Origin: Candidatus Kerfeldbacteria bacterium RIFCSPLOWO2_02_FULL_42_19
GTDB lineage: Bacteria; Patescibacteriota; Patescibacteriia; HO2-48-17
Assembly (NCBI GenBank): GCA_001818315.1
Contig: MHKF01000012.1
Location: forward strand, 128,080-192,079
DNA: 64,000 bases
Direction of reading: 5' to 3'
Part shown: positions 9,967 through 58,590 of the stretch, one piece after another
Layout of the letters: the number at the start of each line of letters is the position of its first letter
How positions within the stretch are numbered: position 1 is the stretch's first letter
Notes under the pieces: model-generated
Databases searched by the model: none
The model's input: only the letters and a program-made list of their open reading frames with translations
Told to the model about the DNA's origin: nothing
Made by a program: the position numbers and the translations under genes

Positions 9967-10117
9967 AGTTCCTACATTACTTGCAGTCTGTAGGAACTTG
10001 GTTGAAAAATTCTAGATTCAGAATTTATTCCGATAGGCAGGGCTGGCGGTTTGTGATTTTTTTCTCACAGACTGCCGGAAAAAGGTTCAATAAAAAGCTC
10101 TTTTCTAGCAGTCTGTG
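9967..10117. promoter_or_regulatory. Divergent intergenic region (large gene <-> dnaG) containing two perfect 10-bp palindromic hairpins that share a CAGTCTGT motif
   Basis: agttcctaca…tgtaggaact (9967-9998) and cacagactgc…gcagtctgtg (10067-10117); the same half-site recurs at 27258-27298 and 29984-30029. Confidence 0.3.
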
Positions 10118-10518
10118 CACGTCCGGTTTTTCTCTTTCTTTTGAGTATTTTCTAGCGGTTGTATTGCTGTATTTTCTTTCCTTCATTTTTCAAAGAACGT
10201 CACCAAAAGCGTAGTCATAAACATTGTCTTTGTCAATGTATATTTACAGTTTTTGGAAACAATTGAGTAAATCATGTATTGAAATTTTTGTCAATTTCGC
10301 ACAAAATTGAAAAAAGCGAATAGAAAAAACTTTTGTGAGAAATATCTGAAGGATATCATGACTTTCGCTTATGTTCCTCACTGGAGCAATCCTATTCGCT
10401 TTTTTTGAAAAAGGCTACTACCCGTCGGAATCCGAATCACTTCCTGCAAGAAGAAGAATCGGACGCGTAACATTACAAAAATAGTATACTTTGCCTTTGC
10501 TTTTTCGTCAAAAGCGGG

Positions 10519-12396: not shown

Positions 12397-13761
12397 ATGC
12401 CAAGAACGCGCACACGTTTACGTGTCCATCGTAATAAAATTGTAAAAAAAAGTACTCGGGGCAAGCGCAAGCCAGAACCGAAGCGTTCTCGGAAAAAATC
12501 CGCATTGTCTTCGGTGCGTAAAAAATCTCATAACATTCGTCGATCAAAACATAATGCCTCAGCTCATGGCGCTCCAGGTCGCAAACCTCAGAAGCGAATC
12601 GGTTTGTCAACTGGAAAATCTCCTTTAAAAGCTCTCGGATTTTTACATCCGCCAGTGCCGCCGCGGGGATATACACCAACTTCGTGGCCGGAATCTGAAG
12701 CTCAGAAATTGTTTGCTAAGGGACAGATGCGCAGCTTTTTGACTGAAGATGAAATTTTACATACATTTCCTTTTATTGAAGATTATTTGCATGAATACGA
12801 ACATTTTTTGGGGCAACTCGAATACGGCGGAGTCGCCATTCGTGAGACAACGGGAAGTATTCTTGGACAACAACTCGCACCGCAAAACGAAACCCGGAAG
12901 CAGGTTTCTGATCGTAAGCCGTTCGATTTGGGTGACATTTCGAATGATTCTATTCAAATGTATTTGCGCGAGATTGGGAAAGTACCTCTTTTAAACAGTG
13001 AGGAAGAAATTCGACTTGCGAAACTCAAAGAAAGAGGGGAGCCGGACGCTAAACGGAAAATGATTGAAGCGAATTTGCGTCTCGTCGTAAGTATTGCAAA
13101 GAAGTTTACTGGCAGATCGCTTTCGCTTTTAGATCTCATTCAAGAGGGGAATGTTGGTTTGTTTCGCGCCGTGGAAAAGTTTGACTATCGGAAGGGGTAT
13201 AAATTTTCGACGTATGCGACCTGGTGGATTCGGCAGGCGATTACGCGTTCACTTGCAGATCAATCGCGCACGATTCGTATTCCGGTCCACATGGTCGAGA
13301 CGATTAATAAGTTTCAGCAGATAGAAAGGCAATTGATTCAAAGTCTTGGACGCGAGCCGCTGCCCGAAGAAATTGCCACTGAGATGGGCTTGCCGATCGA
13401 AAAAGTATTTCAGATTATAAAAATTTCGCAGGACACAGTTTCACTCGAAACGACTGTTGGAGATGATGATGAAGATTCAACGCTTGGGGATTTTATTGAA
13501 GATGCGAAGAGCGTGACACCGGATCGTGCAGCGGCTTTGGAGCTTTTGCGAGATCATGTGCGTGATGTGATTCGTGATTTAGTGCCCCGTGAACAAAAAA
13601 TTCTTGAGATGCGTTTTGGATTGCTCGACGGTGTTGCTCATACGCTCGAGGAAGTTGGTCAAGAGTTTGGTGTTACTCGAGAGCGTATCCGTCAGATTGA
13701 AGCAAAGTCACTGGAGCGCATCAAGCAACATGTCTCTATGAAAAAGCTTCAGGATTATTAG
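12397..13761 (+). CDS. rpoD: RNA polymerase primary sigma factor RpoD (sigma-70) with a basic N-terminal extension
   Basis: [12 protein letters not shown] region 2.x, IRIPVHMVE, region 4 [15 protein letters not shown]; the position after dnaG fits the operon. Confidence 0.85.
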
Positions 13762-25110: not shown

Positions 25111-25308
25111 ATGGAATTTGCAAATCTGCGCTGTCCCTATTGCGGACATGTACAACAGGTGACGGTGCCACAAAAAAGTTGTCTTTTTTCGCATCGCTGC
25201 GCGCGATGTCATGATCTTATTACCGTACCATCGACGAGTTCGGAATGCTGTGTAATTTGCGCTTATTCCGATACGAAGTGTCCAGTGAGTCGCTCACAGA
25301 GTAAGTAA
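25111..25308 (+). CDS. small Cys-rich zinc-ribbon protein (hypothetical)
   Basis: 65 aa with CPYCG…C…C..C and a second CC..C cluster; weak support. Confidence 0.3.
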   Translation: MEFANLRCPYCGHVQQVTVPQKSCLFSHRCARCHDLITVPSTSSECCVICAYSDTKCPVSRSQSK

Positions 25309-25360: not shown

Positions 25361-27184
25361 TTATGGCGAAAGATCAAGCCCCCATTGTTCGAGTATACTT
25401 TGGAGGTATTCGAGTGTCTTTGTGTCCATCTTTGGACTCATGAGTATTTTTGTTTTCCCGAGGCGCGCTAGTTGCTCAATTGTTTGTACACCCCAACGGT
25501 CTTTGAATCCTCGAATGATTTCTTTCGTGACGCCGTACTTGTTCAGACATTCGATATTTTTTTGTTTCGCCAATTCGGAAGGCCATAGTGGAATGTGCCG
25601 TGTTTCGTTTTTCCGTCTCCCTTGTTTCTTTTTTGATTCCTCCTTTGGTTTCTTGTGCTCTATCTCTTGGCTATCAGATGTTTGGTATGTCCGAACAAAC
25701 TGGGTGTTCAGGTTGAGCATCTCCGCGATCGTACTTATGGGCCATTCGAGATCATTAATAAGTCTTGCAATAATGATTTCGCGAATCATTTGCAGCTCTG
25801 GCGTGTTGCATGCGTATCGTATCGCGCGAAGACTCTGACCGAAACTCTCGCACATCTTTCGAACCAAATTTTCCCGAGCGACTTTTGCTCGGCGTGTCCA
25901 CGATATGCAACGTTGCACAGAACATTTTGGTTTCTTTTTAAAACATGCATCTTCTGGAAAAAGGTATTTTATTTTTTCCAAGATCTGTTTATTTTGACAC
26001 AGCCCAAGTACCCTTTTTTCTATTTGTCGTACTCGTTCCCGCGTGACACCGAGATATGCACCTACTTCTTCCAATGTCTCGCCGTCGCCGCCATTGAGAC
26101 AGAATCGTCTTTCAATACAAACCCGTTCTTGCTCAAAGAGATAACATGCGTCGAAAATTTCCTCGACGAGTTTTGTAAGTTTTTTATGCGTTTCTGCATC
26201 ACACAAACTTTCTTCTATCGAGCTGCCACTAGATACAAGATCACCTCTTGTCGCGCCGTGGTTTGCATCGTTTTGAAGAGATGCGTCCAGCGAGAGAGGA
26301 TGATCATAATTGCGTAATCGGTTGAATAGATCCAAAATTTTTTTCGAACTCGTATTCATGCGTGCTGCAAGTGATTCAATTGTTGGCCGTTCACCAGAAA
26401 GCATCTCTATCTGATAGGTTATTCTATTCAACCTTTGAAGCTCGACGATCAGATGGACTGGAAATATATGAGCCTCTGCAATAGCTCTCCACATCGCTTG
26501 TTTTATCCACCAGTGTGCATAGGTTGAGAAGCGGACTCCTCGCGTATAATCATAACGTTCTACGGCATGCATAAGACCGAGCGCGCCTTCCTGCAAGAGA
26601 CTGTCTTGCGCAAGCATTGGATCCCGGATTCTACCAATGATATTCATTAGATGCCCAAGCGTAGCGCCAACGAGGTTCAGATTTTGTTCCATAATTTGAT
26701 TGCGAGCGGCAAGTCTTTCCGCGGGTGTCCCTTCTCGGAATTGTTGGAAGAGTTTAAATTGGTTGCCGAGGATTTTTTGTGCTATCGCTTCTTCCTCTGG
26801 CGTTGTGGCCTTAAAGTGTGATGTCTCGTATGTGGCGGACAGATTTTTTGGACCAGTGAAATGACGACCGTCTCCTGCTGAAGTACGCAAATGCTCACAA
26901 CCGTACTCTTCGAGTGCTTGTTGGATTTCTGCGATAATATTATCCGCAGTGCCATGTGGCAGAGACCTTTGAACCCCTGCCCTTCTGATCTCTAGAAATG
27001 TTCGGCGTAGTTCCGCCTCACTTTTGAGTTTGAGTTTCGCGATTGTTGTAATGCCTGCACTGATCAGATAGAGTTTTGTGAATGGAGATATATTCAGCGC
27101 GTCTATCGATTCTCCGGTTTCTTGTTTGTTAAGGTGCTGCATGTGTCCCTCCTGTCTTTTCGTTGTGATGTATTCTGATTTCAC
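25361..27184 (-). CDS. sigma-70-family sigma factor with N- and C-terminal extensions that resemble RpoA alpha-CTD / HhH domains
   Basis: Region 2 YAHWWIKQAMWRAI; region 4 LEEVGAYLGVTRERVRQIE; N-terminal LNISPFTKLYLISAGITTIAKL and C-terminal IECLNKYGVTKE…TIEQLARLGKTKILMSPKMDTKTLEYLQSILEQWGLDL resemble the alpha-CTD pattern. Confidence 0.65.
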   Translation of the reverse strand: MKSEYITTKRQEGHMQHLNKQETGESIDALNISPFTKLYLISAGITTIAKLKLKSEAELRRTFLEIRRAGVQRSLPHGTADNIIAEIQQALEEYGCEHLRTSAGDGRHFTGPKNLSATYETSHFKATTPEEEAIAQKILGNQFKLFQQFREGTPAERLAARNQIMEQNLNLVGATLGHLMNIIGRIRDPMLAQDSLLQEGALGLMHAVERYDYTRGVRFSTYAHWWIKQAMWRAIAEAHIFPVHLIVELQRLNRITYQIEMLSGERPTIESLAARMNTSSKKILDLFNRLRNYDHPLSLDASLQNDANHGATRGDLVSSGSSIEESLCDAETHKKLTKLVEEIFDACYLFEQERVCIERRFCLNGGDGETLEEVGAYLGVTRERVRQIEKRVLGLCQNKQILEKIKYLFPEDACFKKKPKCSVQRCISWTRRAKVARENLVRKMCESFGQSLRAIRYACNTPELQMIREIIIARLINDLEWPISTIAEMLNLNTQFVRTYQTSDSQEIEHKKPKEESKKKQGRRKNETRHIPLWPSELAKQKNIECLNKYGVTKEIIRGFKDRWGVQTIEQLARLGKTKILMSPKMDTKTLEYLQSILEQWGLDLSP

Positions 27185-27257
27185 TCAAGTCTTCTGTGAC
27201 TTGAGATGAGGGTATAACGTTAGTTTTGTGTCGTCAAGCATGTCTTAAAAACGCAAT

Positions 27258-27298
27258 CAGACTGTGAAAACTTTTTGAGAGATGTTTCGCACAGTCTG
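27258..27298. terminator. hairpin cagactgtgaaaac…gtttcgcacagtctg, 12 nt after the stop of paralog A
   Basis: Inverted repeat seen directly; a homologous hairpin sits at 29984-30029. Confidence 0.4.
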
Positions 27299-27310
27299 TT
27301 TGAGAATGTT

Positions 27311-28060
27311 TCAAAAGAATTTTTCCTCAATCATTCGGAGCCACCGAAGCCATTTTTCTGGATCGGCGTCGAACTCCGGGCGTTTGAGGGTCAGGACGTT
27401 TCGTGCGAGCACAGCGTCGAAAGTAGTCCCGTCGAAGCTTCCCAGAATGACGCCGATGAACAGGCCGGAGTTGATGTGCACGTCTTGTTGCATGCACGAT
27501 GACACCTGCGTGCTGTGATCTGGTTCTTCGTGAAAGAGATGTTCGAGCTTTGGTGCAGCGTTGATGAGTTTTTGTTTGTATTGTTGTGTGAACGTTTCTT
27601 TCGCTGCATACTTCGCGTTTGTGTGTACAAAGAGCCGGAGGAACCTTCCGAGCATTCGCCACAGAAAGATCAATGTCGTGAGGCTTTCGTGTCCCAAGAT
27701 CTGTATGATTGCGTTGAGTGCGCAGGGGTCAATCACGAGGGAATTTTCGTATCCCTGGTGGAGGAGATGAGGCTGCATGAAGACGAGGGGCTTTATGAAG
27801 TCTGGTTCGCGGTGCTGTGGGATTGTCGACATCAGGACTCGCGGTTTGAGCTGTAGATCATGGGGGAGTTGCTCGGCGAAGCCTAGGAAGTTAAGCTTGA
27901 GGAATTCAGCGGGGTTATACTCTTCTGCTTTGGCGAATCCTGGCTCGTCATCCATGTATCCGAAGATACCAAGTCTCTCTTTTTGTGTATCCAGTTTTTG
28001 CATCTTTTTTCCTTTCTTTGATTTTTTGTTCCTCGGGTTTTCCGAAAATATTTGCGGCAT
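27311..28060 (-). CDS. uncharacterised protein, paralog A of 30039-30737 (no recognised family)
   Basis: 249 aa; shares LWRMLGRFLRLFV and the C-terminal DVHINSGLF.GV.LGSF.G.TF…LAR.VLT.KRPEF…WLRMIE.KFF with paralog B (~45-70% identity by block). Confidence 0.55.
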   Translation of the reverse strand: MPQIFSENPRNKKSKKGKKMQKLDTQKERLGIFGYMDDEPGFAKAEEYNPAEFLKLNFLGFAEQLPHDLQLKPRVLMSTIPQHREPDFIKPLVFMQPHLLHQGYENSLVIDPCALNAIIQILGHESLTTLIFLWRMLGRFLRLFVHTNAKYAAKETFTQQYKQKLINAAPKLEHLFHEEPDHSTQVSSCMQQDVHINSGLFIGVILGSFDGTTFDAVLARNVLTLKRPEFDADPEKWLRWLRMIEEKFF

Positions 28061-28109
28061 TATTGACGAATGGCGCTTTTGAGAGCAAAGTTCTCATAAG
28101 CTTCGATCT

Positions 28110-28946
28110 TTGTCAAGAGGTTTCTATTCGAGGAGATTGATGATAATGGAAAAAAACACTGTTTATTGTCAGATTCGTAAGCAATGGATTACCGCAGCCA
28201 TCTGCAGTATGTTGCAAGGTGTTCCGGATTGCGCTGGTTGTGCAGCTCCGACGCGACAATGCGAGCATTGTAAAAAACGGATTGTTGAATTTCCGGATAC
28301 CGGTTTGTGCAGGGAGTGTTCACAGAAGGATCCGGAGCAACATAATGCATCTCTGGCTCATTCTATTCCTTCGCGTTCTATGCGTTGGACGCTTTGGCAC
28401 GTTCAAGAAGATCAACCCAACTTTCAGGAGCTTTTGGCACAGGCAGAAACGCTTGTGAGGAAAGAAGGAAAAGCATCGGCGCGTCTCCTCTGTCAGAAAT
28501 TCAATGTAACGCATAGCATTGCAAAGCGGCTGATTCAGGCTTTGGAGACGAGTAGTATTATAGGTCCACCTTATGCTCGTAGACCGCGACGCGTTTTGTC
28601 AGTTCGATCTTCTGTAGATGTTCCCAGTCAAAATCAACCTGAGAACGAGTCTACTGATAAGCCAGTTCTTCCGGTCGGTGAGACTGTTTCTTCAGTCTCT
28701 TCTGATACAGTGCTTGAGACACAGGTTTTCTCTCTTACTCTACCATCGTACTTATGTCACGATGTTTCGGGTGAGTCTACCCATGATTCGGCTGCCGTGG
28801 GTTGGTCTCTCAAGATGGAGTTACTTGTGCGTATTCTGCAGGTGTTGCCTTCACAATCTCAAGCGTCAAAAATTATTCGGACAATCATGGACGACGTCCG
28901 TATCATTCACGCGATCCAACATCTGTTCATCCCCGCTGATCATTAA
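28110..28946 (+). CDS. Cys-rich zinc-binding protein with an FtsK-gamma-like winged-helix domain
   Basis: N-terminal 8-Cys cluster (CQ…C…CAGC…C..C…C..C); middle EGKASARLLCQKFNVTHSIAKRLIQALETSSIIGPP matches the FtsK gamma (GKAS-S-LLQRRL…RLID…GIV) pattern. Confidence 0.5.
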   Translation: MSRGFYSRRLMIMEKNTVYCQIRKQWITAAICSMLQGVPDCAGCAAPTRQCEHCKKRIVEFPDTGLCRECSQKDPEQHNASLAHSIPSRSMRWTLWHVQEDQPNFQELLAQAETLVRKEGKASARLLCQKFNVTHSIAKRLIQALETSSIIGPPYARRPRRVLSVRSSVDVPSQNQPENESTDKPVLPVGETVSSVSSDTVLETQVFSLTLPSYLCHDVSGESTHDSAAVGWSLKMELLVRILQVLPSQSQASKIIRTIMDDVRIIHAIQHLFIPADH

Positions 28947-28947
28947 G

Positions 28948-28980
28948 AGACTACTCTGTATGGAGTAGTCTTTGCCTTTT
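28948..28980. terminator. bidirectional terminator hairpin between the convergent 28110 and ParB-like genes
   Basis: agactactc-tgtatg-gagtagtct followed by ttgcctttt. Confidence 0.45.
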
Positions 28981-29046
28981 ATGACATACTACTCTGTCGC
29001 AATGAAAAAACACAGAAGGTGGATATTGTCCACCTTCTTGAGAAAG

Positions 29047-29898
29047 TTACGATTTTTTGTGTGTCTTCAATTCAGTTTCTACTGTTTCTATTTTTTGTTT
29101 GAGAAGTTGCAGGATCGCTACAAGCGTTTCCCGTTGCATCGCGTTGCTACTGGGGATATCGAAATGTTCGAGTCCTTCGAATGTAGCGGCGATAAATCCG
29201 CGTAGTTTTTCAAAAGTGATCACGAGTTGCCTCTTTTCTGTTTGTCTTCTCACATGACGTTGCATTCGAGCCAGCAGTCTATGGGCTGGCAATCTTTCTT
29301 TGACAGCGATGGTCGCTGCATTGAGTTGCTGCTCCGGATTAATTTCCATGATGATCTTCGCGCAAGCAATGTTGATTTCGCCAGCGGCAATCATTTTTTG
29401 TATCGCTTCAGACAGTTTCAAGAGCTGGAGTCGTTCTTCTACGAAGACGGAACTTTTTCCGATGATTCTTCCTACTGCGCTGCGGTTGCCCTGATAATGT
29501 TCGACGAGTTTTGCGATGGCTTTTGCTGTTTCAATGGGGCCAAAGTTTTTGCGTTGCACGTTACGTACTACAGCAATCTCCAGCGCTTCACCTTGCGAGA
29601 CGTATTTTATGATCGCGGGAACCGTACTCCAGTTGGCAGAAATCGCAGAACGCAGACGTCGTTCCCCGTCAATCAACTCGAAATATCCTTCTTGATCATC
29701 TGCTGTGCGTACTTCAATGGGATCCAGCATCCCTTTTTGTCGGAGCGATTCAGCAAAGTATTCAATATCCTCCTGATCAAACGCCTCGCGGAACTGATAA
29801 CGTCCAGTAATGATTCGATTCACCGGAATGTCGCGACGCTCTTCTGTGTTTGTTTCGTGAATATTCTGTGTCATGTCATCCTCCTTTGTTGGTGGCAT
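29047..29898 (-). CDS. ParB/Spo0J-like nuclease-domain protein
   Basis: ParB N-terminal box LIDGERRLRSA, preceded by LDPIEV; HTH-like middle; no parA adjacent. Confidence 0.6.
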   Translation of the reverse strand: MPPTKEDDMTQNIHETNTEERRDIPVNRIITGRYQFREAFDQEDIEYFAESLRQKGMLDPIEVRTADDQEGYFELIDGERRLRSAISANWSTVPAIIKYVSQGEALEIAVVRNVQRKNFGPIETAKAIAKLVEHYQGNRSAVGRIIGKSSVFVEERLQLLKLSEAIQKMIAAGEINIACAKIIMEINPEQQLNAATIAVKERLPAHRLLARMQRHVRRQTEKRQLVITFEKLRGFIAATFEGLEHFDIPSSNAMQRETLVAILQLLKQKIETVETELKTHKKS

Positions 29899-29983
29899 GC
29901 CCTTACTTCACTGCGCTTACTACCTTATCAATGAGAAGTTTTCTTTGTCAATTGAAATTTATTCTGTTTTGTCGTGAAGACAT

Positions 29984-30029
29984 AATCAGACTGCTTGAAA
30001 CGATTTTTCGCGTTTCTCACAGTCTGATT
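29984..30029. terminator. hairpin aatcagactgcttgaaacg…cgtttctcacagtctgatt, 10 nt after the stop of paralog B
   Basis: Homologous to the 27258-27298 hairpin. Confidence 0.4.
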
Positions 30030-30038
30030 AGAAAAGTT

Positions 30039-30737
30039 TCAAAAAAATTTACCTTCGATCATTCGTAGCCACTGAAGCCACTGCTCAGGATTTTTTTCGA
30101 ATTCAGGACGTTTGTGGGTGAGTACTTTTCGCGCGAGCGTGGCGCTGAAAGTATCACCGTTGAAACTGCCAAGTAGAACCCCTACGAAAAGGCTCGAGTT
30201 GATGTGCACATCGTCTTGCGCACCCGGTTTGAGATTAATGCTATGCTCAGGCTCTTCGCGAAAGAAGTTTTCGAGACTCGGCGCAGCCTCGATAATGCTT
30301 CGCTCTTGTTCTAGTGTGAACATTTCCGTCGTCTGAAATTTTCCATTAGCGAGTACGAAGAGCCTCAGAAAACGTCCCAACATACGCCACAACATGATTA
30401 ACGTCCAGAAATCATCCAAATTCCAGATATCCTGCACTAGTATACGCATTGTGTCCGGGTAGATGATGAGACAATTTTTCGCAACAGGGGCTTGCGGGCC
30501 GAAAAAGGTAAGTCCTCGCACAGCGTTCTCTGCAGTTGGTGGTTCTTTCATGAACAAAATTTGCGGTGGATTTTGATGTGTATGAGGTAGTTTTTCTGCA
30601 AAGCTGATAAAATTGACTCTTAGGAATTCCTCGGGACGATATCTGTCGGACAACTGAAATTCTGGATCATCGTTCAAGTATCCATACAGATTCAATCTCT
30701 CATCTTGTTTGCCCTGTTTTTGCATCTCTACATTCAC
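30039..30737 (-). CDS. uncharacterised protein, paralog B of 27311-28060
   Basis: 232 aa; same conserved blocks as paralog A. Confidence 0.55.
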   Translation of the reverse strand: MNVEMQKQGKQDERLNLYGYLNDDPEFQLSDRYRPEEFLRVNFISFAEKLPHTHQNPPQILFMKEPPTAENAVRGLTFFGPQAPVAKNCLIIYPDTMRILVQDIWNLDDFWTLIMLWRMLGRFLRLFVLANGKFQTTEMFTLEQERSIIEAAPSLENFFREEPEHSINLKPGAQDDVHINSSLFVGVLLGSFNGDTFSATLARKVLTHKRPEFEKNPEQWLQWLRMIEGKFF

Positions 30738-30928
30738 CTCCTTTCTTTCCGAACTCTACATAATATCGAATATCGAAATATCGAAGGACAATTTTGAAAG
30801 GAACGTTCTCACACGAGATCTGTTTTGTCAAGAATATTTTGGCACAAGCAGAACTGTACACGCTCAAGACGTGACGCAAAATATTTGCTATACTTTATGG
30901 AGCTATTTTATTTTATCAACAATCCATT

Positions 30929-32062
30929 ATGCAAAACAAATATATTTTTTTTCCAATATTAGCACTTTTACTTGTGTTCCCTTTTCGCTTTGCGGAGGCA
31001 AAAACATATGTCTCCATTAACGGCATCAGTAACGGTGTCGCGTTGTATGCGTATAAGGGTCCGGAACTTCTCAATAAACTTGCTAAAGTTGTGAAAAGCG
31101 GTGGTTCGATCGCGCAAGCGAAGGCACGAGCGCTTTTTAAAAAACACACGATTACGATTGGTAATGTCGTAAAGAGTAAGGGCACGCAAGGCGATGCGGA
31201 GAGTACGCATGTTCGCGCGGGGTCTTTGTTTTTTGGAAAAGCAAAGTTTAAGGCGGCAAAAAAAGGTCAGACCGTGAAGAATTTTCCTATTGTTTATCAC
31301 GTTGATGGGGATCTGAAGTGTTATATTCCAGATGAGGATGTTCCTGAGGATTATGCGATTGCTTATGTAGAAACACAAGTGCGATTTAATAACGATGATA
31401 AATTTATCGGTAGCGCTCTTGTTGATGGCCGCACCGGATTTGACGGTGGCGACGGGGATCTCGCGGGAAAATTTACAGAAAAAGACGAATACAATGTTTC
31501 GATAAAGAAAGATTTTTCGGTGAATCTCGGTAATCTCAAAGATGGCAAAACGTACCCGCTCTTGTTTTTTGGAGCGACGTTGGTTTCCTATGCCGCTGAT
31601 ATACCAGTTGATTATTGTACCGCTGATTTTTATAGCACCGGCGAATTTGGTGTAAGTGAAAAGAACAAAAAATCAAAAGGTAATTTTACGTTTGAACCTG
31701 CCGTGACGGTAACCGCGACGCCTGATTCACAACCCTGGGATCGAAGTGATATCCCAGATATCACCGTCTATGTTGAAAGTAGTAATACAACGCTTATTAA
31801 TACGATTGATGTGAATCAAGTGCAATTATTCGAACGACTCGGAGATGTTGGCCAAATGCAACCGAAGTCTATTTTGGACACCGGAGATTTTGATGGTGAT
31901 GGAGTGAGCGATCGAGGCATCGTGTTTGATGGTTTGCAGCTTTATACGATTCTGCAACTTACAACACTTGGGCATAAGGATAATCCGTTGCTTTATCTCA
32001 TCGGAGAAACAACGAGCGGCACTCCTTTTGCAGGAAAATTCCGTTTTGAGACGCAGGAATAA
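30929..32062 (+). CDS. secreted hypothetical protein
   Basis: N-terminal signal peptide MQNKYIFFPILALLLVFPFRFAEA; 377 aa, Gly/Asp-rich; no family recognised. Confidence 0.45.
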   Translation: MQNKYIFFPILALLLVFPFRFAEAKTYVSINGISNGVALYAYKGPELLNKLAKVVKSGGSIAQAKARALFKKHTITIGNVVKSKGTQGDAESTHVRAGSLFFGKAKFKAAKKGQTVKNFPIVYHVDGDLKCYIPDEDVPEDYAIAYVETQVRFNNDDKFIGSALVDGRTGFDGGDGDLAGKFTEKDEYNVSIKKDFSVNLGNLKDGKTYPLLFFGATLVSYAADIPVDYCTADFYSTGEFGVSEKNKKSKGNFTFEPAVTVTATPDSQPWDRSDIPDITVYVESSNTTLINTIDVNQVQLFERLGDVGQMQPKSILDTGDFDGDGVSDRGIVFDGLQLYTILQLTTLGHKDNPLLYLIGETTSGTPFAGKFRFETQE

Positions 32063-36987: not shown

Positions 36988-38517
36988 ATGACCCACACTA
37001 TGCCTGCAAAAGATTTTCCAAAAGAATGGCCGATCTATTTTAAAGACAATATTATCGTTGGAAATCTTCAGAATTCTGTTGGAATTGCCTGTCTTTGGAC
37101 GCCGAAAGTCATGTTCGCACGAAAGTTAAACGCCGCAAGTTACTGCGTTTTGAGTCAGTTGTATTCGAACGACGGCATTAATCCAATTTTGCGCAATGTT
37201 TTAGCTCGGCCGCAAATTCATACGATTGTTATTTGCGGGCAGGATAAAATTGGTTCAGCCGATGCGCTGACAAAGCTTTGCGTTAGCGGTATTGATGAGA
37301 AATACAAGATAATCGGTAAACTCGAGGCAAAGGTGGATAAGGAGATTCCGCGCGAGGCCGTGGAACTTTTTCGTAGGAACGTAAAGATTGTGGATATGCG
37401 TGGCGTGCTCGATGCGGCGAAAATTCAACAAGCCGTGCGCGAACACGCAGCGCCGAACACACCGTGGGCAGCGCCGCAACTTTTTCCTGAACCAGAACTT
37501 TCAACCGAACGTTTTCCGATCGATCCTCACGGAGTCAAGATTCGTGAGAAGTATGTCGCGCAAGCGTGGCTTCGGGTGCTGTATTATATTATGCGCTTCG
37601 GCGCGGAAAAACCTACGCATCACGGCACGAATCAAAAAGAACTCCTGAATATGATGACGATTATCACTGACGAAGATCCCGAAAATATCCATTGGGCAGA
37701 TTGGTTCAATTTTACACGCGAGCACTTTGAAGGGTATAAGCTACAAGTCATGAGTGCGGAATCGATTCCTAGTCTGGAGTATACGTACGGCATGCGATTG
37801 CGGAATCACGATGGCGTGAATCAGATTGAGACGCTTATTGCAAAAATTCGAGAGGAATATTTTTCCCGACGCGCTGTTGCTTTTACGTGGAATGTCGCTC
37901 AGGATAACGTGAGTCAGCATCCGCCGTGCCTTGATCTCGTACAGGTGATTGTGCAGGACGATACGCTTCACATGACGTGTTACTTTCGTTCGAATGACAT
38001 GTTCCGCGCATGGCCGGAAAATGCGTTGGCCTTGCGCACGATGCACAAGGAGATTGCCGACGGAGTGGAATTGCCGATGGGCGAAATGTGTATTATTTCT
38101 CACAGCGCTCATGTGTACGAAGAAAACTATAATGAAGTGAAGGAGCTTTTGAAAAATTATTATGCGAAAGAGGTTGTTTTTTGCCGTTTTGATCCGCGTG
38201 GCAATTTTACGATTCACGTGAATCGCGAAAAGCGTCAGTTAGAAATGATCATGATGACGCCGAAAGGTGAGAAGATTGTCAAATACGAAGCACCCGATGC
38301 GTTCCGTATGATGCAAAAATTGGTCGCTGATGAAGCAGTTAGCGAGATTGGGCACGCGTTAGATTTGGGTGAGGAGCTCATGGAAGCAGAAATTTGTTTG
38401 CGTACAGGCCTTGAATATCGGCAGGATATCACAGGACGTACGCAATTTTTAAAGGAACTTGATCAGCTTTTGGCAGCACGCAGGCAAGAGGAACGAATCT
38501 TCGCGCGTTCAAGATGA
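36988..38517 (+). CDS. thymidylate synthase (ThyA-fold) homolog with a ~170-aa N-terminal extension
   Basis: RRAVAFTWNVAQD…HPPCLDLVQVIVQD…CYFRSNDMFRAWPENALALRTMHKEIA…ISHSAHVYEENYNE parallels the ThyA blocks R..WNP.D…PPCH…QF.V…YQRS.D…PFNIASYALL…GD.HIY.NH, including the catalytic Cys. Confidence 0.55.
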   Translation: MTHTMPAKDFPKEWPIYFKDNIIVGNLQNSVGIACLWTPKVMFARKLNAASYCVLSQLYSNDGINPILRNVLARPQIHTIVICGQDKIGSADALTKLCVSGIDEKYKIIGKLEAKVDKEIPREAVELFRRNVKIVDMRGVLDAAKIQQAVREHAAPNTPWAAPQLFPEPELSTERFPIDPHGVKIREKYVAQAWLRVLYYIMRFGAEKPTHHGTNQKELLNMMTIITDEDPENIHWADWFNFTREHFEGYKLQVMSAESIPSLEYTYGMRLRNHDGVNQIETLIAKIREEYFSRRAVAFTWNVAQDNVSQHPPCLDLVQVIVQDDTLHMTCYFRSNDMFRAWPENALALRTMHKEIADGVELPMGEMCIISHSAHVYEENYNEVKELLKNYYAKEVVFCRFDPRGNFTIHVNREKRQLEMIMMTPKGEKIVKYEAPDAFRMMQKLVADEAVSEIGHALDLGEELMEAEICLRTGLEYRQDITGRTQFLKELDQLLAARRQEERIFARSR

Positions 38518-46360: not shown

Positions 46361-47318
46361 TTAACGTACCCAAGCGTTGTATTCTTTGAGTCGCCCCTGC
46401 TTCTCATAAAGAAGGCGTGGATTCAGGATTTCTCGGGGAATTTGTTTGAGAAGCATGGCGTTCTCGGGTGCGTTCACGTTAGCGATCTCGTACCCGAAGT
46501 CAGGATCGCGTTGCCATCGAATTTTTCCTTCAATCATAACTTCTAACATGGCCGAGGAGTGAGGAATTTTTATTTTGAGCGCACGCCCTGCTGAGACGTC
46601 TTGTGCATCACCACCGATAAACCCTGTGTTCATCATCCACATCTCAACTCCTTTCATGCTCCTGGCAATCTCACTGAAACGTTCGGCCTGAAGACGATGA
46701 ATTCTGGGGAAGAAGGGCTGTGTAAATGGGGATCGAATTCTGCCGTGTTCTTTCCCTGCAACCGAGGTTTTAGTGGTCTCTCCGAGCATAAAATACGCTG
46801 TAGCCTGTGCGGGCGAAGTGAAGCGGAGGATGCCTGGCGTTGCAGCGTCGCTCCCTGCATCACGATTCAAAATCCCCATAAGCTTGACTTGCGGGATATT
46901 TCGAAAATTTGCAGCATTTTTTATTGCGCTCATTGGGATGATCGAACGACTGTTCTGAGTCCAGATCACAAAATCCCATCCATCTTTTGAGATGCCGCGT
47001 TCATCAACGATTTCTTTAAATGAAACTTTTGACAAAATATAGTTGTCCACATTTTCAGCCACGGCGCCGTTGCGATTCGATCAGCTTCTGCGCCTTTTCT
47101 GGAGGAATTGTATTCGAGGAGTAGCAGTCCTTCTCCGCATCAGGAGCAATAATGTAGGTGTATTGATCTATCCTCGCTTTGTTCCGCGAGATCTTGTTCA
47201 AACTCCCGTAAGCAGTTCGGATCGTTACCGATGTGTATTCCAATGCGAGTTCCTGGAGTTCTTTCTGATTTGGATTTTCAATATATCTTACTTTGTAAGG
47301 TTTCAAATTGTGTGACAT
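46361..47318 (-). pseudogene. pckA: ATP-dependent PEP carboxykinase (pckA) remnant: N-terminal 87 aa and C-terminal 233 aa in different frames; the central kinase region is missing
   Basis: N-terminal ORF 47055-47318 (…YGSLNKISRNKARIDQYTYIIAP…) and C-terminal ORF 46361-47062 (…EMWMMNTGFIGG…LLYEKQG…) match the two PckA ends; no GLSGTGKTT P-loop region; 8-nt overlap with a frame change. Confidence 0.55.
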
Positions 47319-47399: not shown

Positions 47400-48233
47400 A
47401 TGGGTTCTGAATCAATAAAATACGAGATTACACCTCCAAAGGGACTTATAAGGTTCAACCTTCCGGAGATTTGGAGATTTAAGGACCTGTTTTATATTTT
47501 GGTCTGGCGAGATATTAAGGTTCGGTATAAGCAGACGGTTTTAGGTATTCTGTGGGCTCTGTTTCAGCCATTTTTGACGATGGTGATTTTTACTATCTTC
47601 TTTAGTGTTTTTGCAAAAGTTCCTTCCGATAACGCCCCTTATCCCATTTTTGTTTATTCTGGTTTGCTCTTTTGGAACTATTATTCGACCGCTCTAACGA
47701 ATGCGAGTAATTCACTTATCAATAATGAGGGGATTGTGCAAAAAGTCTATTTTCCGCGTCTCATTTTACCGATCTCAACTGTGTTGACACCGATAGCAGA
47801 CTTTATATTTGCCTTTTTTATTTTATTGGGATTAATGGTTTATTATCATTTTACCCCCGGAATTTTAGGCCTTCTGCTTGTACCTCTCTTGCTTCTCATT
47901 TCTATTTTCAGCGCTCTTGGGCTTGGATTATTACTCTCTGCTGTGAATACTAAATATCGAGATGTTCGCTACATCCTTCCTTTCTTTATGCAAATTTTAC
48001 TTTTTATTACGCCTGTCATTTATCCCGTCTCTATTATTCCAGAACAATTTCGCTGGTTGGCTTTCTTTAATCCAATGACCGGCGTGATCACTCTTGCTCG
48101 CAATGTTATTATCGGGGTAGGGGAAGTAAATTTCGGACACATTGGTGTTTCCGTATTCGTGAGTGTCGTTTTACTCTTCATTGGCCTCGCTTACTTTAGA
48201 AAAACAGAACGCTTCTTCGCCGACGTATTATAA
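47400..48233 (+). CDS. ABC-2 type polysaccharide/O-antigen export permease (Wzm/TagG-like)
   Basis: RDIKVRYKQTVLGILWALFQP signature, six TM segments. Confidence 0.7.
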   Translation: MGSESIKYEITPPKGLIRFNLPEIWRFKDLFYILVWRDIKVRYKQTVLGILWALFQPFLTMVIFTIFFSVFAKVPSDNAPYPIFVYSGLLFWNYYSTALTNASNSLINNEGIVQKVYFPRLILPISTVLTPIADFIFAFFILLGLMVYYHFTPGILGLLLVPLLLLISIFSALGLGLLLSAVNTKYRDVRYILPFFMQILLFITPVIYPVSIIPEQFRWLAFFNPMTGVITLARNVIIGVGEVNFGHIGVSVFVSVVLLFIGLAYFRKTERFFADVL

Positions 48234-48247
48234 GGTATTATGATACT

Positions 48248-49474
48248 ATGCAATCAATTATTCAAGTTGAAAAACTGAGCAAAAAATTTCATATTGGCCA
48301 AAAAGAGCACTACTATTCTTTGCGTGACTCCTTAGTGGATGCCATCACTTTTAGGCAGAAAAAAAAATATGATATCTTCTGGGCATTGAAAGATATTAAT
48401 TTTGAAGTTCAACCCGGCGAAGCACTGGGAATTATAGGCCGCAATGGAGCTGGTAAAAGCACTCTCTTGAAAATTCTTTCTCAGATCACTCCGCCGACCA
48501 CTGGGCGAATCAAAATTGGAGGACATGTAGCTTCTCTCTTAGAGGTCGGTACTGGTTTTCACCCAGAACTCACAGGCCATGAAAATATTTACTTAAACGG
48601 TGCAATTTTAGGTATGTCCCGTAAAGAAATAAAAAGAAAGTTCGATGAGATTGTGACTTTTGCTGAAATTGAAAAATTTCTCAATACGCCAGTGAAACGT
48701 TATTCTTCTGGAATGTATGTAAGACTCGCTTTCGCTGTGGCTGCCCATTTGGAACCGGAGATATTAGTAATCGACGAGGTTTTAGCAGTTGGCGATGTTC
48801 AGTTCCAAAGAAAATGCTTGAATAAAATGAATGAAATTTCTCAAAAAGATGACCGCACGGTTCTTTTTGTCAGCCACAATACAGGAGCTATCCAGACTCT
48901 ATGTGAACATTGCATCTTGCTTGATCAAGGAAAAATAATAATGCAAGGAGACACTCCGAGAGTCATTGAGAAGTATTTGAGAACATTTAATGACACAATA
49001 CTGATTGATCGTAAAGACAGAATCGGTAAAGGTGAAATCCGACTTACAGATGTCTCTTTCGAAAATTCTGCAGGAGAAGAAGTCGCATCTTTCATCTCAG
49101 AAAAAGACGCTATACTTAAGATAAGGTACGAATCGGTGAACAATTCAGACACAGATTTGAGAGATGTTGATATTGGCATTGGAATAGATGATAGTATTGG
49201 TCAGAGAATTGCTGGTCTATCTACAGTTGGTAATAAAAATTTTCCTGACCGCATTAAAAAGAGTGGTTTGTTTATATGTACCATCAAAACATTACCTTTG
49301 AATACGGGACGCTTTTATCTGACCTTGATTTTACGCCACAAGGGCGAGATTATGGATTGGATTCAGCAAGCTGCCTTTTTTGATGTTGAGAACCTGCAAA
49401 ATTTCAACTATGGCTCATCGCTCTCAAGATCAGACGGCCCTTTTTTAATTAATCATTTATGGACAGTACAATGA
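48248..49474 (+). CDS. polysaccharide ABC exporter ATP-binding protein (Wzt/TagH-like) with an extra C-terminal domain
   Basis: Walker A GIIGRNGAGKSTLL, YSSGMYVRLAFA signature, ILVIDEVLAVGD; ~150-aa C-terminal extension. Confidence 0.75.
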   Translation: MQSIIQVEKLSKKFHIGQKEHYYSLRDSLVDAITFRQKKKYDIFWALKDINFEVQPGEALGIIGRNGAGKSTLLKILSQITPPTTGRIKIGGHVASLLEVGTGFHPELTGHENIYLNGAILGMSRKEIKRKFDEIVTFAEIEKFLNTPVKRYSSGMYVRLAFAVAAHLEPEILVIDEVLAVGDVQFQRKCLNKMNEISQKDDRTVLFVSHNTGAIQTLCEHCILLDQGKIIMQGDTPRVIEKYLRTFNDTILIDRKDRIGKGEIRLTDVSFENSAGEEVASFISEKDAILKIRYESVNNSDTDLRDVDIGIGIDDSIGQRIAGLSTVGNKNFPDRIKKSGLFICTIKTLPLNTGRFYLTLILRHKGEIMDWIQQAAFFDVENLQNFNYGSSLSRSDGPFLINHLWTVQ

Positions 49475-50145
49475 TAGCGATTCAACAGTTCGTTTCAAAA
49501 ATCAGAGCTAGGTTTTTCAAATCTCAATATCTTGATCCCGATTTTGATAAACGAGGAGCAACGACCAACGAAGAAATTGATCTGTTTTGGCAAGACGAAC
49601 AAAGAGTCAAAGAGTACCTCGTTCAGGAACGTTTAGATTTCTTTCAGGAGGTAGCTCATAAAATACCTTATTCCGAAGATGTTAAATCAGTCATTGATAT
49701 CGGATGTGGCTCAGGACACGTTCTCTTCCATTATTCAAAGATACATCATATTAAGGAAGAAGCTCTCGTTGCGTGCGAAATCTCAATTCATGCTCTTTTG
49801 CAAGTGAATAAATTGCTTCCTAGGGTTAATCTACTAAGAGTTGATTTGCTTTTATTGCCCCATTTATTGAATCACAAGTTTGATTTGGCTATTGCTACTG
49901 AAATTCTCGAACACTTACAGCAACCCCAGAAGTACTTAAAGAGTATAATAGAGATACTGAATCTTGGAGGAAAAGTTCTCATTACTATCCCCAATGGTGA
50001 TCTCGACAATTGGAGCGGACACGTGAATTTCTGGAATAAGAATCAATTTAAAGAATTTCTTGGAAAATTCAATGAAATAGAGTTGGTATATTCGGAAACC
50101 TTATCAAGTAATGATCTTTTATTTGTAATTAAAAAAGTGAGATGA
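49459..50145 (+). CDS. class I SAM-dependent methyltransferase
   Basis: VIDIGCGSGHVLF motif I. Confidence 0.55.
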   Translation: MDSTMIAIQQFVSKIRARFFKSQYLDPDFDKRGATTNEEIDLFWQDEQRVKEYLVQERLDFFQEVAHKIPYSEDVKSVIDIGCGSGHVLFHYSKIHHIKEEALVACEISIHALLQVNKLLPRVNLLRVDLLLLPHLLNHKFDLAIATEILEHLQQPQKYLKSIIEILNLGGKVLITIPNGDLDNWSGHVNFWNKNQFKEFLGKFNEIELVYSETLSSNDLLFVIKKVR

Positions 50146-51203
50146 TGAGCATTAGTATGAAGACAGTTCATTTCGCCATCTTAGGGTGCGGTAAAATTGG
50201 TACAAGGCATGCCGAAAAAATGCGTAGTGTGGATTATGTACGTCTCAATGCTGTATGTGATATAGTCGGTGAAAAAGCAGATATTCTCTCAGAGAAGCAT
50301 GTTTGTAGATCCTATCACAGCATAGAACAGATGCTTAAAGACCCGGATATCGATTTTGTGAATATTTGCACTCCTTCAGGCTTACACGCACAGCACTCCA
50401 TCATGTGTTTAAATGCCGGCAAGAATGTTCTCTGTGAAAAACCAATGGCACTTACCGTAAAAGATGCTGTCAATATGCGCAAGGCAGCTGAGAAAAACGG
50501 TAAAATGTTGTATGTTGTCAAACAGAATCGGTACAATCCACCAGTCAAACTCGTGAAGCAATTGATCGACGAAAAAAAATTTGGCAGACCCATTTTGGCT
50601 GTGGTAAATATGTTCTGGAATAGAAACGACGATTATTACAAAAGCGATCCTTGGCGTGGAACATTAAAACTCGATGGTGGAACGATTTATACACAAGCAA
50701 GCCATTTTGTCGATTTGCTTCTTATGTTTTTGGGTAAACCAAAGTCTGTCTACGCTTTAATAGGAACAAAGAACCATAACATTGAAATTGAAGACACAGG
50801 AGTGATCACCGTACATTTTGAAAATGGTGCTTATGGAACAATGAATTATACTACTTGTGCCACAAAGAAGAATTTTGAAGGATCTATAACCCTCATCTTT
50901 TCCAAAGGCACTATTAAGATCGGCGGAGAGTATATTAATACCATCGAATACTTTCAAGTTGAAGGTGTAGATGGTTACGAACTAGAGCCCAGTGTAGTGG
51001 AAGCTAATGATTACGGTACATACCGTGGTTCTATGTCAAATCATCATGAAGTTTTTAAGGACATCGTCAGAAAGTTTAACAACAGTCAAGATAATGGTAA
51101 CCTTGTATATGGAGACGAAGCAATTGAGACTATCGCTTTAATTGAAAAAGCTTTGGAGTCAGCACGAAACGAAAAAATAATAACTATAAAAGATGAACTA
51201 TGA
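50142..51203 (+). CDS. Gfo/Idh/MocA-family NAD(P)-dependent sugar oxidoreductase (WbpB-like)
   Basis: N-terminal Rossmann segment HFAILGCGKIGTRHAEK; EKP motif. Confidence 0.65.
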   Translation: MMSISMKTVHFAILGCGKIGTRHAEKMRSVDYVRLNAVCDIVGEKADILSEKHVCRSYHSIEQMLKDPDIDFVNICTPSGLHAQHSIMCLNAGKNVLCEKPMALTVKDAVNMRKAAEKNGKMLYVVKQNRYNPPVKLVKQLIDEKKFGRPILAVVNMFWNRNDDYYKSDPWRGTLKLDGGTIYTQASHFVDLLLMFLGKPKSVYALIGTKNHNIEIEDTGVITVHFENGAYGTMNYTTCATKKNFEGSITLIFSKGTIKIGGEYINTIEYFQVEGVDGYELEPSVVEANDYGTYRGSMSNHHEVFKDIVRKFNNSQDNGNLVYGDEAIETIALIEKALESARNEKIITIKDEL

Positions 51204-52174
51204 AACAAGTTCGTATTCTTTTGACATCCGTTGGAGTTGAAACAGGTCCTAATGTCATTAATGCACTAAAAAAATCTTCTGACTTCACTCCATATATTAT
51301 TGGCACGGATAACGATCCTCTTGCTGCAGGTCTGTATTTATGTGATGAAAAAGTTATTGCCCCTAGGATAGATACGCCTGATTATATGTCACATCTTATG
51401 CAAGTTTGTCATACATACAGGGTTGATATCATTATTCCACTCCTCTCAAAGGAAATGCCTTTCTTTGCTAGTGCATCCCAACTCTTAAAAGAGAAAGCAG
51501 GAATTAAAATCGCGATTTCTGATCCAAAAACTATTCAACTTTGTGCAGATAAAAATTTGTTCGTGAAGTTCTTAATTGATCATAATATCCCAGCTCCTCG
51601 TGCTTTTGATGAGCAAGACATAAAGGAAACAGATTTTCCTCTCTTTGTCAAGCCTATTACTGGCAGTTCGAGTCGTTATGCTATTCGAGTGAATTCTCTT
51701 GCTGATCTTGAATATATCAAAAGAATTGCCGGTCCACTTTCCATTCAAGAATTACTCACCGGACCCGAGTACACCGTCGATACATTATGTGATTTAGAAG
51801 GTACATTGGTCACAGCCGTCATTAGGGAACGTCTTGAGGTTAAAGATGGTAAAGCAGTCAAAGGGCGTACAGTGAAAGATGATGATTTGATACAGCTTAT
51901 CAAGAATCTTGTAAGTTATGTGAAAATTATTGGTCCATCCAATATTCAATGCATTAAAAATCAAGGAATTTATACATTTTTTGAAATTAATACGCGCTTC
52001 TCTGCCGGTGGACTTCCTCTCACTGTTGTAGCAGGAGTCAATTTACCTGCTTTGCTTGTGAAAATACATCTTGGAATGGAAATTCATCCCGAAGAGTTGT
52101 TGTATAGAGAGAATGTATATATGAGCAGATATCTCACCGAGGTCTTTCCTCAACCAGTAAGGAATTTACTATGA
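51200..52174 (+). CDS. ATP-grasp domain protein (probable sugar-modifying ligase)
   Basis: Carbamoyl-phosphate-synthase-like ATP-grasp layout; sits inside a sugar-modification operon. Confidence 0.45.
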   Translation: MKQVRILLTSVGVETGPNVINALKKSSDFTPYIIGTDNDPLAAGLYLCDEKVIAPRIDTPDYMSHLMQVCHTYRVDIIIPLLSKEMPFFASASQLLKEKAGIKIAISDPKTIQLCADKNLFVKFLIDHNIPAPRAFDEQDIKETDFPLFVKPITGSSSRYAIRVNSLADLEYIKRIAGPLSIQELLTGPEYTVDTLCDLEGTLVTAVIRERLEVKDGKAVKGRTVKDDDLIQLIKNLVSYVKIIGPSNIQCIKNQGIYTFFEINTRFSAGGLPLTVVAGVNLPALLVKIHLGMEIHPEELLYRENVYMSRYLTEVFPQPVRNLL

Positions 52175-53175: not shown

Positions 53176-53185
53176 TTAGAAAAAC

Positions 53186-53899: not shown

Positions 53900-54533
53900 A
53901 AAATCACTCTTTGTCGATATAGATGGACCGATTCTGGACGTTTCTGAACGGTATTATAATGTCTATTATGATTTTTGTAGACAGAATAATATAAGGCCGG
54001 TTTCTAAAAAGTATTACTGGCAAAAGAGACGCAGGAAACAAAATGTCTCTCTGAAGTCTTCACTTACGGAGAAATATAAAGAATTTTGGATAAAAACAAT
54101 AGAACTACCACAATACACTCATTTTGACACCATACGTCCACACACGATTGAAGTTCTTGCTAAACTGCAGCAAAATTGTAATCTGTACGCCGTGTCACTC
54201 AGACAGAACGCAGAAACAGAAAAAAAAACATTAAAGCAATTTGGCGTTTCCGAATTTTTTAATAACATTTATATCGCGCCACCTTCCCTTTTTGAGACAA
54301 TGAAGAACTGGCGGATTAAAAGAGCATTAATTCATGAGATTGCGTCACTGGGTGATATAATCATTGGAGACACACCTACTGATATTAAATGTGGTCAAAG
54401 TTTAAGATTCATTACGGTTGCAGTGCTCTCAGGCATAACGAACTACAGTCTGCTTAAGTCTTATCAGCCTGATTACATTATTAGAAAAATTGATTCTCTT
54501 CCAAGATTATTAGATAGAAACAATTTGCTATGA
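53880..54533 (+). CDS. HAD-superfamily hydrolase
   Basis: Motif I LFVDIDGPILD; ~217 aa. Confidence 0.5.
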   Translation: MQSAEIKKSLFVDIDGPILDVSERYYNVYYDFCRQNNIRPVSKKYYWQKRRRKQNVSLKSSLTEKYKEFWIKTIELPQYTHFDTIRPHTIEVLAKLQQNCNLYAVSLRQNAETEKKTLKQFGVSEFFNNIYIAPPSLFETMKNWRIKRALIHEIASLGDIIIGDTPTDIKCGQSLRFITVAVLSGITNYSLLKSYQPDYIIRKIDSLPRLLDRNNLL

Positions 54534-58507: not shown

Positions 58508-58590
58508 ATACAATATGTATATCCAAGAAAGATTCATTGTATGAAATCAGCGTATATGTTATATTCTTGCTGAGAATTGTAAAATATAAG

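Follow-up and report, generated by a model that had tools for sequence, protein, structure and literature searches.

Do five neighbouring genes of Candidatus Kerfeldbacteria, three of them coding for DNA-binding proteins and two for duplicated proteins of no recognised family, form an undescribed system? The question is raised by a stretch of 64,000 nucleotides (nt), here called the window, from Candidatus Kerfeldbacteria bacterium RIFCSPLOWO2_02_FULL_42_19 (contig MHKF01000012.1, positions 128,080 to 192,079). An earlier note on this DNA had proposed a duplicated module, consisting of an unknown protein and a hairpin, that brackets a ParB-like gene and a gene with an FtsK-gamma-like domain, and had suggested a defence system, a segregation system or the remnant of a mobile element. 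Here, we found that the cluster genes are real but essentially restricted to a single species, and that nothing shows them to form a defence or partition system. We tentatively favour the explanation that the genes make up a regulatory or nucleoid cluster peculiar to this species, the two duplicated proteins being putative pseudo-zincins that would each modulate the downstream neighbour by binding.

The two paralogs that the earlier note had described are indeed present as minus-strand open reading frames (ORFs) at 27311-28060 (paralog A) and 30039-30737 (paralog B), the mechanical ORFs extending to 28060 and to a GTG at 30737, respectively. Based on Shine-Dalgarno context and public gene calls, the likely starts are at 28003 and at 30725 (an ATG), giving proteins of 230 amino acids (28003-27311; identical to protein P0001) and 228 amino acids (30725-30039) that both begin with MQK. 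They are 50% identical from end to end (BLASTP E 8e-79) and have in common LWRMLGRFLRLFV and the C-terminus DVHINS...WLRMIE.KFF. The identity between A and B at codon positions 1, 2 and 3 is 0.64, 0.73 and 0.45, a pattern which indicates purifying selection on both paralogs; towards the 3' end, identity at third positions is 0.48-0.50, which gives no sign of recent gene conversion. At this level of amino-acid identity the duplication of the cassette is old, and both copies are under purifying selection.

The duplicated units, of approximately 870 bp each, span ~27241-28125 and ~29970-30835 and include an upstream box, a ribosome-binding site, the coding sequence, a hairpin and approximately 15 nt past the hairpin. 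The conserved upstream box reads (C/T)TCTTGACAAA...TGAGAAC.TT.CT.TCAAAA. Its promoter-like part is TTCTTGACAAA at 30824-30834 (minus strand) in front of paralog B, followed by the conserved TGAGAAC.TT.CT.TCAAAA, and the homologous CTCTTGACAAA at 28109-28119 (minus strand) in front of paralog A. Since the duplication also takes in this box, it is larger than the protein-plus-hairpin module of the earlier note, of which the duplication itself stands and the extent has to be revised. The duplicated unit is a complete, self-contained expression cassette with a promoter-like box, a gene for ~230 amino acids and a 3' stem-loop. The region upstream of paralog B also carries a short tandem repeat, three copies of AATATCGA at 30762-30785 between a TTGACA-like box and the ribosome-binding site, which is not found upstream of paralog A.

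Each cassette shares its strand with the gene of a DNA-binding protein, which follows directly downstream. Cassette B precedes the ParB/Noc-family gene (29047-29874, minus strand, 275 amino acids), and cassette A precedes the gene of an alternative sigma-70 family factor (25361-27142, minus strand, 593 amino acids), which contains sigma-70 regions 2, 3 and 4 and is thus a sigma factor directly downstream, as had been said. The distance from each paralog to its co-directional neighbour is ~130-170 nt. Between the two cassettes there is another DNA-binding gene (28146-28946, plus strand, 266 amino acids), convergent with the ParB-like gene and divergent from paralog A, whose product combines a Zn-ribbon with an FtsK-gamma winged helix. 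The genes downstream of the paralogs have strong Shine-Dalgarno sequences and TTGAC-type boxes placed after the hairpins. The duplicated cassette and this arrangement are the best-supported positive result on the locus. It is because each cassette stands co-directionally before a DNA-binding gene, with a third such gene between them, that we read the paralogs as candidate modulators of their neighbours.

A homologous hairpin after each paralog had also been claimed, and it is present in both copies: hairpin A (27254-27302, minus strand) lies between the stop codon of paralog A and the sigma gene, and hairpin B (29983-30030, minus strand) between the stop codon of paralog B and the ParB-like gene. 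The stem-loops begin 8-12 nt past the stop codon, and the CAGACTG core starts 12 nt past it in each case. Hairpin A folds with -17.6 kcal/mol (z -3.4) and has an outer stem CAGACUGUG/CACAGUCUG and an inner stem GAAAC/GUUUU; hairpin B folds with -24.7 kcal/mol (z -5.8) and has a 12-bp outer stem UAAUCAGACUGU/GCAGUCUGAUUA and a 6-bp inner stem. The outer stems are nearly invariant and stem length is kept in different ways, by extra pairs inside in copy A and outside in copy B. Identity over the 75 nt 3' of the paralog stop codons is 71%, compared with 45% at third codon positions.

A third member of this hairpin family was found at 10054-10127 (plus strand), in an unusually long gap of 590 nt between a gene for an unknown 947-amino-acid protein and dnaG. 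It consists of CACAGACUGC...GCAGUCUGUG, with the same CAGACUG core and similar flanks, and no paralog gene, intact or decayed, was detected near it by tblastn or blastn. It may be what is left of a cassette that was lost, or else a regulatory site used in common. With a covariance model made from all three hairpins, no further copy was identified in the 64-kb window. Rfam gave nothing at gathering score in the window except tRNA, and nothing meaningful at E <=5 in 27100-31000.

The two paralog hairpins are not textbook terminators. A run of five U residues lies 7 nt past the stem of hairpin A, and a U-tract is missing from hairpin B, while canonical intrinsic-terminator-like hairpins follow the ParB-like gene (29014-29038, minus strand, with U-tract) and the FtsK-gamma gene (28946-28973, plus strand). 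A terminator consensus scan called these last two and neither of the paralog hairpins. The lack of a U-tract in hairpin B next to such neighbours suggests that the paralog hairpins may have a role other than termination. One way to account for them is that the inverted repeats are DNA sites, namely operators or centromere-like loading sites for the ParB-like clamp or the FtsK-gamma protein in a small regulon of the KorB/Noc type. Such a regulon would fit the rarity of the element, as CAGACTG-N10-40-CAGTCTG has three matches in the window (0.00 expected from shuffles) and the covariance model retrieves only the three; it would also fit their placement, ~55-115 nt upstream of the sigma and ParB start codons for the two minus-strand hairpins and ~120 nt upstream of the start of the 947-amino-acid gene for the third. 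Moreover, both strands fold about equally well, hairpin B lacks the U-tract, canonical parS sites are absent from the window, and the helix-turn-helix (HTH) of the ParB-like protein departs from the canonical one at the contacts (EERLQLL for ANxLRLL). On the other hand, the arms are not evenly spaced (27, 26 and 34 nt apart) and different sequences form the inner stems, which favours a folded structure rather than a fixed dimer operator, and 8-12 nt past a stop codon is a typical position of a 3'-end stem-loop. We consider DNA sites for one of the three DNA-binding proteins a serious but unlikely rival and favour RNA 3'-end stem-loops because of the start 8-12 nt past the stop codon, the variable arm spacing and the structurally maintained stems. 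As a separate matter, GTGAAAAC and GTTTCGCAC within the hairpin stems resemble parS half-sites; this parS-like reading was rejected, as the third hairpin has neither and the halves are in the wrong order.

The earlier note could not recognise the paralog family, and the databases agree: neither paralog has a match in Pfam, NCBIfam, PADLOC or PHROGs. Word-index protein searches with paralog B and with a three-sequence alignment returned self matches and one other protein, P0004, only. An exhaustive HMMER search with a two-paralog profile against 1.84 billion representative proteins gave four matches, two being the paralogs themselves and the others P0003 and P0004, and a further search with a three-sequence profile added nothing. 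No relatives were found in a viral-contig scan with the paralog alignment or by tblastn against phages and plasmids. An exact-sequence look-up identified identical proteins, annotated as hypothetical, in Candidatus Kerfeldbacteria bacterium RIFCSPHIGHO2_02_FULL_42_14, a member of the Candidate Phyla Radiation (CPR) from the Rifle aquifer. They are carried by four NCBI series of metagenome-assembled genomes (MAGs), with the accessions OGY79358-62, OGY81886-90, OGY83475-79 and OGY86995-99. Seven public contigs with the locus were examined and were 99.98-100% identical to the window; being near-identical contigs, they hold no strain variation. The paralog family, like the FtsK-gamma protein described below, is in essence limited to one species.

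P0004 (222 amino acids) is the sole true relative outside this species, with an hhalign probability of 97.5% (E 6e-12) and a colinear alignment over 191 columns. It comes from a different, higher-GC organism, where its neighbours are small unknown ORFs near nusA and ftsK. At the position of the paralog LWRMLGRFLRLFV it has LWQMTCHELRHLV, and its HELRH aligns exactly with the RFLRL of both paralogs. Together with the hydrophobic residues around it, this HELRH reads as a well-formed zincin motif. P0004 also has a weak match at HELRH to the putative metallopeptidase family DUF6782 (E 0.03), at a similar relative position and with a similar profile length; no literature on DUF6782 was found. The other protein retrieved, P0003, was rejected as a homolog, its match being a repeat-summed one of 40 amino acids with a motif, AAPKLxNFFEKHPxH, that is not kept in P0004. 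P0003 itself is a eukaryote-like protein of 1082 amino acids with Egalitarian winged-helix repeats, which repeatedly carries AAPKLQNFFEKHPQHF; its resemblance to the paralog AAPSLENFFREEPEHS and AAPKLEHLFHEEPDHS (amino acids ~150-165) was judged to be due to chance.

If the paralogs were active metalloproteases of the ImmA/ImmR or IrrE/DdrO type, each could cleave the DNA-binding protein encoded next to it, and a protease-like gene beside a DNA-binding gene, as well as the well-formed HELRH of P0004, would be in agreement with this. However, HExxH is absent from both paralogs, which have RFLRL instead, so that both His ligands and the catalytic Glu are gone, and neither Peptidase_M78 nor any other peptidase family of Pfam or NCBIfam matches them. 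On sequence grounds we firmly conclude that the window paralogs cannot be HExxH proteases; a protease-substrate mechanism of the ImmA/IrrE type is hence excluded for them, and the active-protease explanation as a whole is hardly credible. We tentatively suggest that they are descendants of a small zincin-like protein, i.e., catalytically dead pseudo-enzymes. This suggestion is kept tentative because AlphaFold models of the paralog built from two and then three sequences reached a predicted local distance difference test (pLDDT) of 44 and 46, Foldseek found no match with E <1 in the PDB, and profile and phmmer searches of PDB sequences, with the family profile and with P0004 as queries, gave nothing relevant. 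In these low-confidence models, two helices with three strands between them precede a long helix that would bear the motif, an order that would be compatible with a zincin topology.

The ParB-like protein encoded between the paralogs was correctly recognised, as it contains ParB_N (PF02195, E 7.5e-23) and HTH_ParB (PF17762, E 2.6e-15) and scores 129.6 bits on TIGR00180 (cutoff 58.45). Among solved structures it matches Noc best (E 1.5e-31), followed by Spo0J/ParB (E ~1e-24 to 1e-25), and its score on the Noc equivalog model is 135, far under the cutoff of 315. No domain matches were found for its terminal extensions. GERRLRSA is retained and aligns with GERRWRA/GERRYRA of Noc and Spo0J. In alignments with four ParB/Noc proteins of the PDB, ENLQR is replaced by RNVQR, with loss of the hydrolysis Glu, and the HTH contact motifs are altered, with EERLQLL in place of ANxLRLL and ACAK in place of (G/R)HAR. 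In Bacillus subtilis ParB, E111 of ENLQR is needed for CTP hydrolysis and not for CTP binding or clamp closure (PMC8494293). The window protein is probably a poor CTP hydrolase. The ParA-activating peptide of ParB is an N-terminal LG(K/R)GL motif, which does not occur in the N-terminus of the window protein, reading MTQNIHETNTEERRDIPVNRI (or MPPTKEDDMTQ...).

Neither the cluster nor the other scanned ORFs of the window (domain scans covered window ORFs of at least 150 amino acids) contain a partner ParA of the ParA/CbiA type, and the canonical parS (TGTTNCACGTGAAACA) has 0 matches at <=3 mismatches in the 64 kb. Thus, four of the six features tested for ParABS membership are lacking (the ENLQR Glu, the N-terminal peptide, an adjacent ParA and parS), and two are present, the ParB N-terminal domain with GERRLR and the ParB-type HTH. 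The view that this is not a plain partition locus is borne out by the same four observations. We infer that the protein acts without ParA, as a DNA clamp or regulator of the Noc or KorB kind that would bind CTP and recognise DNA sites of its own.

To look for an orthologous locus, metagenomes were scanned with a degenerate ELIDGERRLR pattern. The scan returned 118 loci, all with distant ParB-like genes of <=38% identity, and the fetched DNA of these loci contained no paralog, FtsK-gamma or sigma homolog and no orthologous locus. GTDB genome scans with the ParB-like gene and with the neighbouring glycogen synthase, matched on very specific 8-mers, revealed no relative. In passing, the ELIDGERRLR genes of the metagenome loci almost never have a Glu at the ENLQR position, which is instead occupied by LNKIR, ANFCR, RNKVR, HNLCR and others, which suggests that ParB-like proteins that have IDGERR but lack the hydrolysis Glu form a broad class.

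The protein encoded at 28146-28946 is, as proposed, Cys-rich and of the FtsK-gamma type, scoring 38 bits on FtsK_gamma (PF09397; gathering cutoff 30.6). It has a Cys-rich, Zn-ribbon-like N-terminus, a winged helix at amino acids ~95-150 of 266 and ~110 C-terminal amino acids that match no family; its terminal extensions gave no domain matches. Only the gamma domain is present, and the alpha/beta RecA-like motor domains (PF17854, PF01580) were not detected. No full-length homolog was found in 5.8 billion clusters, no sequence match in the PDB and nothing by tblastn against phages.

The architecture of the 593-amino-acid sigma factor is unusual. Its RpoD-like core covers amino acids ~141-390 only and is flanked by an N-terminal extension of ~140 amino acids, with a faint signal of a helix-hairpin-helix or of the C-terminal domain of the RNA polymerase alpha subunit (E 0.01-0.2), and by a C-terminal extension of ~200 amino acids that matches no family. 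A 65-amino-acid Cys-rich ORF (CxxC...CxxC) on the plus strand (25111-25308) runs towards the 3' end of the sigma gene in convergent orientation. This ORF has a weak Zn_ribbon_Brz match (E 0.003), and the public annotation calls a 52-amino-acid gene there. The housekeeping rpoD gene is located elsewhere in the window (12397-13761), together with dnaG at 10.5-13.8 kb.

The domains of these proteins raise the question of whether the cluster is an anti-phage defence system or an integrated remnant of a plasmid or prophage that carried ParB, a sigma factor and an FtsK-like protein. Phage families include ParB-like, sigma and FtsK-gamma domains (PHROG matches), the restriction to one species is something often seen in accessory genes, and the best NCBIfam and PADLOC model for the sigma factor is MzaA (NF041931/PDLC02203). 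However, the MzaA score of 170.8 bits, to be compared with a cutoff of 800, covers only the generic sigma-70 core, and the housekeeping RpoD of the window scores higher on the same model (331.5 bits). The paralogs, the ParB-like protein and the FtsK-gamma protein, i.e., the other four of the five genes, have no PADLOC match, and so the defence system suggested earlier finds no backing. A mobile origin fares no better: GC across the cluster region is flat (0.42-0.47), the flanks carry glycogen-metabolism genes, a HIT/GalT-like gene, dCTP deaminase, a thymidylate synthase fusion and thioredoxin reductase, and no flanking direct repeats were found around the cluster. The statement that ParA, integrase and relaxase are missing is upheld, none of these domains being detected among the scanned ORFs. 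In addition, the paralog has no phage, plasmid or viral-contig homolog and the FtsK-gamma protein no phage homolog, and the locus is the same in the seven near-identical public contigs and present in the four NCBI MAGs. We therefore regard a defence system or mobile-element remnant as improbable; the window is part of a 320-kb scaffold, and the setting of the cluster is ordinary chromosome.

The explanation that we tentatively favour, a regulatory or nucleoid cluster restricted to this species of Candidatus Kerfeldbacteria, would then run as follows. The cluster would have arisen on the chromosome by duplication of a self-contained cassette whose gene descended from a small zincin-like metallopeptidase. 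The paralogs would have lost the metal-binding and catalytic residues and hence would be no proteases; each pseudo-zincin would instead bind and modulate the DNA-binding protein encoded just downstream, the target being the sigma factor for paralog A and the ParB-like protein for paralog B, in a mode resembling that of an anti-sigma factor or of MtfA titrating Mlc. The ParB-like protein would serve as a ParA-independent CTP-binding clamp or regulator with poor CTP hydrolysis, and not as a partition ParB. The hairpin would terminate or stabilise the paralog transcript and insulate it from the next gene, before which a separate promoter-like sequence and a strong ribosome-binding site are present.

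Several observations weigh against this explanation. Gene adjacency in a single species may be a historical accident. Neither a ParB nor a sigma gene is found in the neighbourhood of P0004, so that the association is not kept in the only available relative. The zincin ancestry is drawn from one motif in one sequence of a three-member family, the AlphaFold models are unusable, and the best zincin-like Foldseek match in the PDB, 3e11, has a non-significant E of 1.6. As for the hairpins, copy B lacks the U-tract that the ParB-like and FtsK-gamma genes have in their terminators, the folding energies barely separate the two strands (the z-scores, in favour of an RNA element, are somewhat better on the mRNA-sense strand), and the third hairpin has no paralog attached.

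The main rival, which we consider possible if somewhat doubtful, is that these genes are functionally unlinked ORFans, with a local duplication of lineage-specific paralogs, an accidental adjacency to the ParB-like, FtsK-gamma and sigma genes, and hairpins that are mere terminators. CPR genomes are rich in unassignable genes, and five of the ten large proteins of the window have no NCBIfam match and several no Pfam match; every cluster gene comes with a promoter-like box, a ribosome-binding site and a hairpin or terminator of its own; P0004 is not located beside a ParB or sigma gene; and no comparative support for linkage was obtained. Mere accident is less easily reconciled with the independent placement of both copies ~130-170 nt upstream of a co-directional DNA-binding gene, with a third such gene between them, and with the retention of both copies under purifying selection since an old duplication. 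The idea of an undescribed system is not refuted, and it finds no comparative support.

A more elaborate form of the favoured explanation is a speculation that we think quite unlikely. According to it, paralog A would be an anti-sigma factor or sigma adaptor of a new type for the extended sigma factor, paralog B would gate the CTP switch of a hydrolysis-deficient, ParA-independent ParB, and the shared hairpin or its DNA palindrome would couple expression or be the site where the clamp is loaded, which together would make up an undescribed partner-switch module that connects a ParB-type clamp with sigma-factor control. If paralogs and neighbours do work in pairs, a ParB-family CTP switch would gain a regulatory role independent of ParA, to be set beside Noc, KorB and PadC; a catalytically dead zincin would moreover have been taken over as a regulator, in a CPR lineage where gene regulation has hardly been studied. 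At present, the main value of the analysis is a negative one: an attractive "undescribed system" is a single-species ORFan cluster, to which guilt by association is inapplicable.

Some further features of the window are worth recording. At 36988-38517 (plus strand), a 509-amino-acid fusion consists of an archaeal-type thymidylate synthase together with an MtrA-like domain and the pterin-binding DUF4346. The region 47400-62400 has a GC content of 0.37-0.40, compared with ~0.44 elsewhere in the window, and contains genes of a Wzm/Wzt-type ABC exporter, many methyltransferases, a GFO/IDH/MocA oxidoreductase, a HAD hydrolase and a methyltransferase-glycosyltransferase fusion; this block is probably a cluster for glycan biosynthesis and export. 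A 233-amino-acid ORF (46361-47062, minus strand) matches only the C-terminal third of ATP-dependent phosphoenolpyruvate carboxykinase (profile positions 298-456 of 465) and may be a truncated or remnant gene.

As to known systems, the literature search found nothing on this combination of genes, and the cluster is built of known kinds, i.e., a ParB-family switch, a sigma-70 factor, an FtsK-gamma winged helix and a probable zincin derivative. The ParB-like protein shares with ParB/Spo0J and Noc the ParB N-terminal domain with GERRLR and the ParB HTH, but differs from them by RNVQR, the missing LG(K/R)GL, the altered HTH contacts and the absence of ParA and parS from the window. The gamma domain of FtsK/SpoIIIE, a winged helix that reads FtsK orienting polar sequences (KOPS), is recognisable above the Pfam gathering score in the winged-helix segment of the 266-amino-acid protein, which is nevertheless a stand-alone protein without the motors and with a Cys-rich N-terminus. 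Likewise, MzaA of the MZA anti-phage system is the top-scoring NCBIfam and PADLOC model for the 593-amino-acid sigma factor, which stays far below the MzaA cutoff, and the other MZA components were not found.

For the paralogs, two comparisons come to mind. Like the genes of anti-sigma/sigma pairs, paralog A is a small gene of unknown function that directly adjoins an alternative sigma-70 gene read in the same direction; however, the paralog matches no known anti-sigma domain in Pfam or NCBIfam, a strong hairpin and a promoter-like box separate paralog A from the sigma gene, and paralog B adjoins the ParB-like gene and not a sigma gene. The other comparison is with the zincin-like regulators, of which ImmA and IrrE cleave ImmR and DdrO and MtfA binds Mlc, and with pseudo-enzymes derived from such proteins. 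The paralogs differ from these families in lacking any sequence or fold match to them and the HExxH motif, so that the comparison is one of analogy and a single motif. What they would have in common is a small cytoplasmic protein encoded beside the gene of a DNA-binding regulator, and a distant homolog, P0004, whose HExxH lies on a predicted long helix after strands.

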